64,000 nucleotides of DNA from an uncultured Verrucomicrobiae bacterium (GCA_963812605.1 CAWEWF010000004.1:288001-352000), one strand, 5' to 3'; positions 11,828 to 14,800 are shown, counted from the stretch's first letter. Translations and numbers: made by a program. Notes: a model not told the origin generated them from the sequence alone.

Positions 11828-14800
11828 ATGAACACCATACGCTGCGCACTAACTGGTTTCGGTAGTTTCCTAACTTGGAGCAACTGTCTTTTCATAAGGG
11901 TTGGAAAGTAGGTTCTTGGAGCAGGCGATTGAGTAAGATGATGAGTTTGCGCATGACGGCGACCAGGGCGACTTTGGGGGCCTTGCCCTTGGCCACCAAG
12001 CGTTGATAGAAGGGCTGCAATTGCGGGTGGCGAAAGGCCGCCACCAGAGCCGACATGTACAAGGCCCGCCGGGCGGCGGGCCGTCCTCCGCCGATTTGTC
12101 GGCGTCCCCGATGCGGACCACTGTCGCGATTGAAGGGAGCCACACCCGCCAGCGCCGCGGCCTGGCGCCGATTCAGCGTGCCCAATTCCGGCAGCAGCGC
12201 CAACAGCACGACGGCCGTCAGGCGTCCCACGCCGACCACCGAACAGAGTCGGGCGACTTTCTGCGCCAGCGCGGGCTCGGCTTGGACCAAGGCGGCGATC
12301 CACGCGGCGAGCTGTTCCAGGTGTCGATCCAGTTGGCTGAGGTGGCGCTGGATCTCCCGGCGGGCGTCGGGGTGGGTGAGATGCTCCAAGCGGTTGTGCT
12401 CGGCCACGCGCAGCGCCAGGACTTGTTGGCGACGGGTGACCAACTCCGCCAGTTGACTCTGGGCGGCGCTCAACGCGGCGGTCCGGCCGGGCGTACGGCG
12501 GCGCCGTAAGCCGCCAGCACGGCGGCATCCAGTTGGTCAGTCTTGGCCAGCCGACCGGTGGCGCGGGCGAAGTCGCGCACGTGACGCGCGTTGACTACCG
12601 AAACCACTACACCGGCCGCGTGCAGGGCGGCCACGACGGCGCGTTCATAGCCGCCTGTGGCTTCGCCGATGACGTGCACGGATCCCAGAGCTTGCAGCCA
12701 ACGCACCAAGGCGCGGTGGCCCTGAGGGTGGTTGGGAAACTGACGGAACTGCGCGCGGGATCCGCTGGCGGCGTGCAGATCCAGGGTGAGTTTGGCGACA
12801 TCCATTCCGACGTAGACGATCGATGGCAACATGGTTAGACTCCTCCTTGCAATGCGAGCCTGGTGGTGGCGCGGATGGGCGCGACCGCCGCTCTGGCAAC
12901 TGTTCGAGCGTACCGACAGGCAACGCGGATGGATCCAGCTCCAAACGGACAGGTCTGAACCGAACCGAGGGCCACGACGATCACTTCCGCGCGCCCTTGG
13001 GGGGCATGCCCCCCAAGGGCCATCCTGTCGCTCCCACACCGGTGGGAAACCAAGCCAGAGAGTACCAAAAATTCTAGATACAAGGGCCACGCTCCGTCGT
13101 GGCCGCATTGAGCGCGCAACGGACGCAACAGAGCGCGTCCCTCCAAGCCGTAGATTCGCAGGCTACCCCAATTTCAGCAAGGGAGTCTGGAAGACAATCG
13201 CCGGGCTGCTCTGCGGCTTGGCCCTGCTGCTATTGCAGGCTGTCGCTGTCCGCGCCGCGACCGTGACCAGAATTGCCGCCGGATACGACTTCAGCCTGTT
13301 TGTGAAGTCCGATGGCAGCCTCTGGGCCATGGGCGCCAACGGGAACGGACAGTTGGGCGACGGCACCACCACCAGCCACTCGACTCCCGAACAAATTGTG
13401 TCCAGCGGTGTCACGGCAATTGCCGCCGGAAACTCACACAGCCTGTATTTGAAGTCGGACGGCAGCCTCTGGGCCATGGGCATAAACGGGAGTGGCCAGT
13501 TGGGCGACGGCACCACCACCGACCACCACACTCCCGAGCAGATCGTGGCCAGCGGCGTCACGGCAATTGCCGCCGGAAGCTTCCACAGCCTGTTTGTGAA
13601 GTCCGACGGCAGCCTCTGGGCCATGGGTTACAACGGCGATGGCGAGTTGGGCGACGGCACCACCACCAGCCACTCGACTCCCGAACGGATCGTGGCCAGT
13701 GGCGTCACGGCGATTGCTGGCGGAGCCAGCCACAGCCTGTATCTGAAGTCGGACGGCAGCCTCTGGGCCATGGGCTACAACGGGAACGGCCAGTTGGGCG
13801 ACGGCACCACCACCAGCCACTCGACTCCCGAACAGATCGTCGCCGGCGGCGTCACTGCGATTGCCGCCGGAGGAGGCAGGTCTGTAGAGAACCCGCAATT
13901 GTTGGGCTTCAGCCTGTTTGTGAAGTCCGACGGCAGCCTCTGGGCCATGGGCAACAACGACTCCGGCGAGTTGGGCGACGGCACCACCACCGGCGCCAAC
14001 CTACCCGAGCAGATTGTGTCCAGCGGTGTCACGGCGATTGCCGCGGGGGCTAACAACCGTGATTACTTCGGCTTGGGGGCCTTCAGCCTGTTTGTGAAGT
14101 CCGACGGCAGTCTCTGGGGCATGGGCTTCAACGCCGATGGCGAGTTGGGCGATGGCACGACCACCGACACCAGCAGTCCCGAGCGGATCGTGGCCGGCGG
14201 CGTCACGGCAATTGCCGCCGGAGCCGAGGACAGCTTGTTTTTGAAGTCCGATGGCAGCCTCTGGGGCATGGGCTTCAATAGCTCCGGCGAGTTGGGCGAC
14301 GGCACGACCACCGGCACCAACAGTCCCGAGCAGATCGTCGGGCTGCCACCCTGCGGCAGCAGCGTAGATATTTGGATCAGTTCGACGGGCGGTAAATGGG
14401 AAACGGCCGCCAACTGGTCACCTTGCGGCGTGGCGCCCTCCATCGCCGATTCCGCCGACCTCATCACAAATGCCGGCAACAACACCGTCACCATCGACCA
14501 AACCACAGCCGGCAGCTTCCCGTCCACCATGGCCGTCAGCAACTTAACCATTAGCGCCAATGCGCTGCAAGTGACCAACGCCATTGCCACCGAGTTCCAC
14601 ATTCTCAACAATTTCACTCTCACCGGCAATTGGGACGCTGAGTGTGACGAATTCGACAATGGTAATTGACGGTAGCATGGCGGTTGGAGCTAACGGGGCG
14701 GTTGGAATGGTCTGGATGTTGGGTGGCCAACTAGTTGCTACAAATCAGGGCACCTACTTTGGTGCAAATGGAGGCACCGGCCAAATGACGACGTCCAACG

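Follow-up and report, generated by a model that had tools for sequence, protein, structure and literature searches.

The stretch of DNA analysed here, called the window in the following, comprises 64,000 nucleotides from an uncultured Verrucomicrobiae bacterium (GCA_963812605.1, CAWEWF010000004.1:288001-352000). At positions 11879-13084 its minus strand very probably carries an insertion sequence of the IS110 group with a bridge RNA, a canonical, well supported and ordinary member of this group, which we call element no. 1. A second IS110-group element, no. 2, is located 4 kb away. Counting the CT dinucleotide at its junctions once, element no. 1 is 1,204 bp long. It consists of a left end of 250 non-coding nucleotides (13082-12833), the recombinase gene downstream of it and a right end of 11 nucleotides past the stop codon, followed by CT. 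The long left end together with the short right end assigns the element to the IS110 and not to the IS1111 group. It is inserted into one arm of a repetitive extragenic palindromic (REP) hairpin. An earlier note on this DNA had described the element by reading the minus strand of the window, and all of its feature coordinates proved to be correct (Table 1).

Table 1. Features of element no. 1 and of its insertion site (window coordinates)
Feature	Position	Strand	Remark
REP hairpin GGCCACG-ACGGAG-CGTGGCC; 3' arm (13091-13085) is the left target (LT)	13085..13104	minus	15 genomic copies with ≤1 mismatch
CT core, left junction	13083..13084	minus	empty sites read CGTGGCC-CT-CC
Element body (TGTAT...ACAGTTG)	11881..13082	minus	alignment of copies including flanks
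-10-like TAGAAT	13071..13076	minus	with ATGAAA (11895-11890) sigma-70-like only across the circular right end-left end (RE-LE) junction
Extra 5' hairpin H0 (UCCCAC-CGGU-GUGGGA)	13032..13047	minus	6 pairs, 4 changed on both sides in 3 sequences
5' stem-loop, 28-bp palindrome GCCCTTGGGGGGCATGCCCCCCAAGGGC	12993..13020	minus	2 compensatory pairs
Target-binding stem-loop (outer stem, internal loop, inner stem-loop)	12925..12990	minus	RNAalifold, covariance model
Left target guide (LTG) CGUGGCCCU	12968..12976	minus	9/9 to LT and core in all 5 copies
Right target guide (RTG) UUUGGAG	12939..12945	minus	6/7 pair in the window copy
Left donor guide (LDG) ACAGUUGC	12896..12903	minus	covaries with the right end in distant relatives
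Right donor guide (RDG) AU-U-G-CAAG, discontiguous	12846..12853	minus	IS621 RDG geometry
Shine-Dalgarno sequence (SD) AGGAGG	12842..12847	minus	2-nt overlap with the 3' end of the RDG
Recombinase gene, ATG 12832-12830	11892..12832	minus	1-nt deletion between 12483 and 12482
Right end ACAGTTG (left donor) and CT core	11879..11887	minus	
Right target CCAAG, REP continuation	11874..11878	minus	

Ends, genomic copies and target of the element

The source genome (15 contigs) contains four full copies of element no. 1 with 99-100% identity and one truncated copy. When these copies were aligned including their flanks, the similarity began inside the REP, was complete from ...ACGGAGCGTGGCC-CT-TGTAT onwards and stopped at ...ACAGTTG-CT. 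The left flank ...ACGGAGCGTGGCC-CT is present in the four full copies as well as in the truncated one, and all five are located in the same REP arm. The right flanks of the full copies read CT-CCAAG, CCAAC, CCAGA and CCGAA, while the truncated copy has no right end. CT is found at both junctions of the element and only once in the empty site. The truncated copy (L005, first ~740 bp, G000:C4:364703-365443) lies about 13 kb past the end of the window. It contains a frameshift of its own and occupies a variant REP beside an inverted REP.

A fuzzy search of the source genome with the 22-nt REP arm yielded 19 matches with up to 4 mismatches, 15 of them with no more than one. The element is inserted in four of these 15 REPs; the remaining 11 are empty and run straight into CC, which defines the site as CGTGGCC-CT-CC(A/G) with a single CT. 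An exact search with the 10-mer gave 44 matches, of which 5 are occupied sites, 10 are empty REPs and 29 lie in unrelated contexts. The empty REPs at C2:146437 and C6:92183 match the guides perfectly (LT 9/9; right target (RT) CT-CCAAA 7/7), yet they are unoccupied. Frequently the REP is paired with an inverted unit with the stem GGACGCG/CGCGTCC (e.g. C4:98503-98540; window 13085-13160, minus strand). This inverted unit (GGACGCG...CGCGTCC) differs from the LTG in 2 of 7 positions and remains unused, occupancy by element no. 1 being restricted to the GGCCACG...CGTGGCC type. As a short GC-rich palindromic unit with many repeats and frequent inverted pairs, the target resembles REPs and bacterial interspersed mosaic elements.

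The earlier note had named flanks of other copies unrelated to the guides, or element ends differing from the CT cores, as outcomes that would speak against it. Instead, the four other copies and the comparison with empty sites confirm the ends at the CT cores, and the flanks of all four other copies match the guides. In a contig from the soil-metagenome run X1 (window 13058-13087), the element's left end is preceded by a different left flank with only ...GCC in common before the core, which suggests another insertion site in that sample.

The recombinase and its frameshift

In three other copies the recombinase gene is intact and encodes a protein of 313 amino acids. This protein contains the domains PF01548 (86.8 bits) and PF02371 (56.2 bits) and reaches 204.3 bits with the NCBIfam model NF033542 'IS110 family RNA-guided transposase' (cut-off 140). 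It can be aligned over the full length to the solved recombinases of IS621 (E 4e-40, phmmer) and ISCro4 (E 3e-39). The motifs GMD, GEATG, KTDxxDA and DSG align with those of IS621, and the residues D11, E57, D99, D102 and S238 sit in the IS621 catalytic motifs. The catalytic residues of IS621 are D11, E60, D102, D105 and S241 (PMC11208158; here and below, statements on published systems draw on parts of the cited papers). By homology, the enzyme of the intact copies would be a DEDD/Ser bridge recombinase.

The window copy lacks one base in the assembly (GGCCGGCACC in the other copies, GGCCGGACC in the window copy, GGCCGG-ACC). Its frame breaks after about residue 116, and as assembled it encodes no full-length recombinase. 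The alignment of the copies thereby bears out, for the assembly, the frameshift at 12480 that the earlier note had wished to see verified in reads, whereas in reads it is assignable to no particular copy. The element is partly covered by contigs from four soil-metagenome runs. These contigs are at most 500 nt long here and end short of the unique flanks, so that the deletion can be neither assigned to the window copy nor excluded from it.

It might be that this deletion is a homopolymer error of the assembly and that the window copy is really intact and autonomous, a possibility to which we give serious weight, if somewhat less than an even chance. Most differences between the copies are 1-nt indels within short runs, i.e. 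in the palindrome (G6/G5, 13005-13010), at 12859 in the donor inner stem (GG, G or none) and at 12482; such indels would fit either long-read assembly errors or real decay. Furthermore, the short-read contigs of X2 and X3 covering 12482 carry the extra base, and those of X1 and X3 are without the extra G at 12859. On the other hand, these contigs cannot be distributed among the five copies. The contigs of X1 end at 12460 and resume at 12483, as expected if both variants are present, and the different frameshift in the truncated copy indicates that decay does occur in the source genome.

Guides and structure of the bridge RNA

Published bridge RNAs of IS110 elements consist of a 5' stem-loop and, after it, two stem-loops with internal loops, which carry guides of 8-9 nt on their 5' sides and of 4-7 nt on their 3' sides (PMC11208160). 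The 250-nt left end of element no. 1 is predicted to fold in the same way. For the comparison, relatives were collected from contigs of one genome per species and the best 80 of 150 were kept. Twenty-five of these 80 loci, from six Verrucomicrobial assemblies, show 60-74% identity, and the other 55 show 36-52%. RNAalifold was applied to 9 left ends with close sequences. The perfect 28-mer GCCCTTGGGGGGCATGCCCCCCAAGGGC (13020-12993), which the earlier note had correctly placed 5' of the target loop, folds as a 12-bp stem-loop. In the target stem-loop the internal loop exposes CGUGGCCCU on the 5' side and UUUGGAG on the 3' side. The internal loop of the second, donor stem-loop contains ACAGUUGC and AUUGCAAG, and a helix of 4-5 bp encloses the palindrome and the target stem-loop together. 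Among the 60 pairs, 13 were changed on both sides.

A covariance model (R1) with 194 core positions and 47 pairs gave 24 matches at E≤1 among 57 sources. In 13 distant loci it detected the RNA at E<0.01, immediately upstream of the recombinase gene. Antisense palindrome matches, one truncated match and duplicate rows were dropped, and 24 distinct forward full-length rows were aligned with the model. In this alignment, which leans to the structure it was fitted to, 95.3% of the cells are standard pairs (34-48% with partners slid by 1-3 columns) and 36 of the 47 pairs show changes on both sides (10-15 in the slid controls).

The guides were read from the window copy. The LTG word CGTGGCCCT at 12976-12968 is identical (9/9) to left flank plus core (13091-13083). 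The RTG word TTGGAG (12944-12939) is the reverse complement of CT-CCAA (11880-11875, 6/6), and the seventh RTG base U12945 would pair with CT-CCAAA. The LDG word ACAGTTGC at 12903-12896 is identical (8/8) to 11887-11880, which comprise the right end and the core C. Both target guides and the LDG are thus borne out at the positions proposed before. The 9-mer CGTGGCCCT occurs 3 times in the window (0.80 expected per 128,000 strand positions) and the 8-mer ACAGTTGC 5 times (1.63 expected, window-wide shuffles). The donor ACAGTTG-CT-TGTAT is the commonest one among the relatives fetched and not unusual.

For the RDG, the earlier note had proposed TGCAAG (12851-12846) with one wobble and regarded this as its weakest assignment. 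TGCAAG indeed faces CTTGTA with one G.T pair. In the IS621 structure the RDG is formed by A157-U158 and C162-G165 (PMC11208158). Judged by its sequence, AU-U-G-CAAG of the window copy has the IS621 arrangement with a bulge one base shorter, and the single wobble would accordingly be the expected G.T pair. All relatives combine a TGTAT start with the pattern YAU-NN-CAAG. The word and its wobble can therefore be retained; the reservation cannot, since a discontiguous RDG with G.T is typical of the family.

Handshake positions are found directly 3' of the two shorter guides, i.e. CU (12938-12937) next to the RTG and GA (12845-12844) next to the RDG. By inspection, C12938 faces the donor G and G12845 the target C, in both cases position 7 of the non-cognate and not of the own DNA. 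The published handshake rule states that the base after each 3' guide complements position 7 of the non-cognate DNA (PMC11208158). The bases of element no. 1 appear consistent with this rule; as these positions are nearly invariant among the relatives, this is consistency and not covariation.

Covariation of guides and flanks

Seventeen distinct guide/flank combinations were counted after removal of duplicates. Rows whose end was not located were dropped (L023, L024, L033, L044, L049, L050, L052, L066, L070, L081, L082), as was L029, where the right end had been mis-called by the pattern. Guides match their own flanks at 5.88 of 7 (LT) and 4.24 of 5 positions (RT), compared to 3.08 of 7 and 2.76 of 5 across families (n=232). 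When 6 families were represented by one member each, the true pairing came out first among the 720 permutations with 63 of 72 matches; the runner-up reaches 61 because two families have near-identical guides.

Besides the window family (CGTGGCCCT 9/9; TTGGAG 6/6), five other families carry flank-matching words of their own at the aligned guide positions. These are L019/L020 (LTG TCCAGCCCT 9/9; RTG TTTGTAG 7/7), the L025-type with 19 loci in one genome (LTG AGTCGCCCT 8/9 with U.G; RTG TTGGTAG 7/7), L039/L041 (LTG 8/9), the L073-type (LTG GCGCTCCT 8/8, with CGTAG) and L060/L061 (LTG TACCATCT 8/8; RTG TAGGAG 6/6). Against AGCCGCC-CT, AAGCGCC-CT or ACGCGCC-CT the word AGTCGCCCT of the L025-type matches at 5-6 of the 7 non-core positions. 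Matches of the RTG only were observed for L082, L052, L050 and L081. In distant relatives the LDG follows the right end, too, as seen for ACAGCTG (L073) and ACGGTTG (L060, L082). The covariation analysis for which the earlier note had called thus yielded compensatory stems and guides that track their flanks.

Proposed mechanism and alternative readings

Starting from the observed ends and target of element no. 1, the complementarity and covariation of guides and flanks, the RNA stems and the homology to IS621, we propose the following course. The element would encode a recombinase and a bridge RNA that has a 5' hairpin region and two loops, one binding the target and the other the donor. With the LTG CGUGGCCCU the target loop would read the REP arm CGTGGCC-CT on its bottom strand, and with the RTG UUGGAG it would read CT-CCAA on the top strand. 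By means of the LDG ACAGUUGC and the RDG AU..GCAAG, the donor loop would read the ends ACAGTTG-CT-TGTAT as they are joined in the excised circle. The circle would then be inserted into one arm of a small REP family through recombination at the CT cores. For this, the RNA would have to be transcribed, with the circle junction as the probable site of its promoter, and to associate with the recombinase, and the recombination itself would have to take place. If the frameshift is real, the window copy would be mobile only with recombinase from the three intact copies, whose guides are identical.

A promoter at the circle junction has been described for IS110 elements (PMC11208160; PMC13626964). When the RE-LE junction of element no. 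1 was assembled in silico, it contained ATGAAA-17-TAGAAT (9 of 12 matches, 17-nt spacer), which is absent from the integrated left junction; a scan for sigma-70-like promoters found none in the integrated region. The sequence suggests that a promoter may be rebuilt at the circle junction, in agreement with the IS110 elements described. Besides the window element, L019 and L020 pass as well (2 of 5 orthologues). REP hairpin and T-rich start of the left end together resemble a terminator (13104-13075, minus strand; one found, 1.1 expected in shuffles). If functional, this site would keep read-through transcription, a requirement for the excision of IS621, out of the integrated element.

Alternatively, the internal matches might be subterminal recognition motifs bound by the recombinase at the DNA level, with no guide RNA involved. 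This would account for guide matches, which were observed in DNA only, but we regard it as very unlikely. The stems flanking the guides keep their pairing through changes on both sides, which points to a constraint on an RNA. The four guides have the strand polarity known from the RNA-DNA duplexes of IS621, their 5' sides being equal to the top strand and their 3' sides reverse-complementary to it. Moreover, RNA guidance has been demonstrated for IS621 (PMC11208160), to which the protein is homologous over its full length. A mere coincidence in GC-rich sequence can practically be dismissed: the window does contain CGTGGCCCT once more (51992-52000), and 3 matches window-wide are reached in 8 of 100 shuffles, but only about 0.002 (9-mer) and 0.003 (8-mer) occurrences are expected per 250-nt left end, both words lie at structurally expected loop positions, and the five further families with their own matches at the same positions, i.e. 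the covariation, contradict it.

Several points weigh against the reading of element no. 1 as a bridge-RNA system. The role of the RNA is read here from DNA sequence; none of the sequencing runs listed is of RNA. Rfam gave no matches at the gathering threshold over the window, and on 12780-13130 chance-level matches only (E 2.4-4.9) with no bridge-RNA family among them. The bias of the model-fitted alignment, the close runner-up among the permutations and the broken frame of the window copy have to be added. In L021 and L022, the LTG matches the flank at only 3 of 7 non-core positions; these insertions may represent off-target or later-mutated sites. Finally, the junction promoter fails in L026, L041 and L022.

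Translational start and neighbouring genes

The SD is invariant in 10 of 10 close relatives. Together with the start region it is located in or beside the basal stem of the donor loop, and it is also able to pair with a 5' UGGU...CUC segment. The CUC at the base of the donor stem can choose either GAG of GAGGAG as its partner, all of these partners being invariant. The hairpin H0, the closing helix and the invariant SD abutting the RDG are additions specific to the Verrucomicrobial clade and allow the idea of a translational coupling. It is conceivable, if rather unlikely, that in this clade the bridge RNA doubles as a translational gate, so that synthesis of the recombinase would depend on folding or occupancy of the RNA. 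Such a gate would constitute a cis-acting autoregulatory link between guide RNA and enzyme, which is not described for IS621 in the parts of the papers cited here. A literature search combining bridge RNA or IS110 with ribosome binding site, Shine-Dalgarno or autoregulation found no such link among the 12 papers it listed, of which a single preprint deals with bridge RNA or IS110.

Element no. 1 is flanked by two genes antisense to it, as deduced from translated open reading frames. Positions 10151-11815 (plus strand) encode a Gly/Asn/Thr-rich repeat protein of 554 amino acids with a signal-like N-terminus, and ~13180-14669 (plus strand) a protein with RCC1-like repeats.

Comparison with known systems

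Element no. 2 (~17343-18594, plus strand) likewise belongs to the IS110 group and encodes a recombinase of 325 amino acids and a bridge RNA in its left end. Its target reads GACCGCCG-CT-ACAGC, its right end ACGGTAT-CT and its left end starts with TGTAT. Its flanks and its right end are matched by the words GACCGCCGC, CTGTAG and ACGGTATC in the left end. Contig C8 carries a copy with 87% identity. Both elements share the CT core, a REP hairpin as target and the right donor TGTAT. In contrast, their recombinases are only 39% identical, and target and left donor of element no. 2 (GACCGCCG-CT-ACAGC, ACGGTAT) differ from those of element no. 1 (CGTGGCC-CT-CCAAG, ACAGTTG). The covariance model R1 does not find element no. 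2 at E≤1. The orthogonality of the two elements in target and left donor, claimed before, therefore holds at the level of these sequences, the right donor being common to both.

Element no. 1 represents a comparatively well-documented natural pair of bridge RNA and recombinase from an uncultured soil lineage. The genome reveals its target and donor, the handshake positions as well as empty target sites, and the guide loops can be decoded from one window. A second system carrying other guides is located 4 kb away, and such pairs are candidates for orthogonal programmable recombinases.

With ISPpu10 of Pseudomonas putida (bioRxiv 10.64898/2026.03.19.712850), element no. 1 shares a repeated intergenic target with a GC-rich stem-loop immediately 5' of the core, whereas the sequences are unrelated. 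The 3' arm of the REP hairpin forms the LT in element no. 1 and likewise in the orthologue families L019 and L025/L030.

The closest parallel is IS621 of E. coli (PMC11208160, PMC11208158). For IS621 RNA guidance has been demonstrated, while element no. 1 is known from its sequence. The identity is remote, the left donor is ACAGTTG instead of ACAGTAT, and the target REP reads CGTGGCC-CT-CCAA instead of ATCAGGC-CT-AC. Furthermore, the left end comprises 250 nt compared to 191 bp in IS621, an extra 5' hairpin and a helix closing the 5' and target stem-loops are present, and the RDG bulge is shorter by 1 nt. Nevertheless, the recombinases can be aligned over their full length with conserved DEDD and Ser motifs. 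Both elements have the bridge RNA in a long left end, a short right end, a CT core, a REP target and the right donor TGTAT. The guide lengths agree (LTG 9 nt, LDG 8 nt, RTG 4-7 nt), as do the discontiguous RDG (AU, flipped U, G.T, CAAG) and the handshake complementarity at position 7. Element no. 1 is a further example of the published bridge-RNA systems and alters nothing in the known mechanism of IS110 elements.

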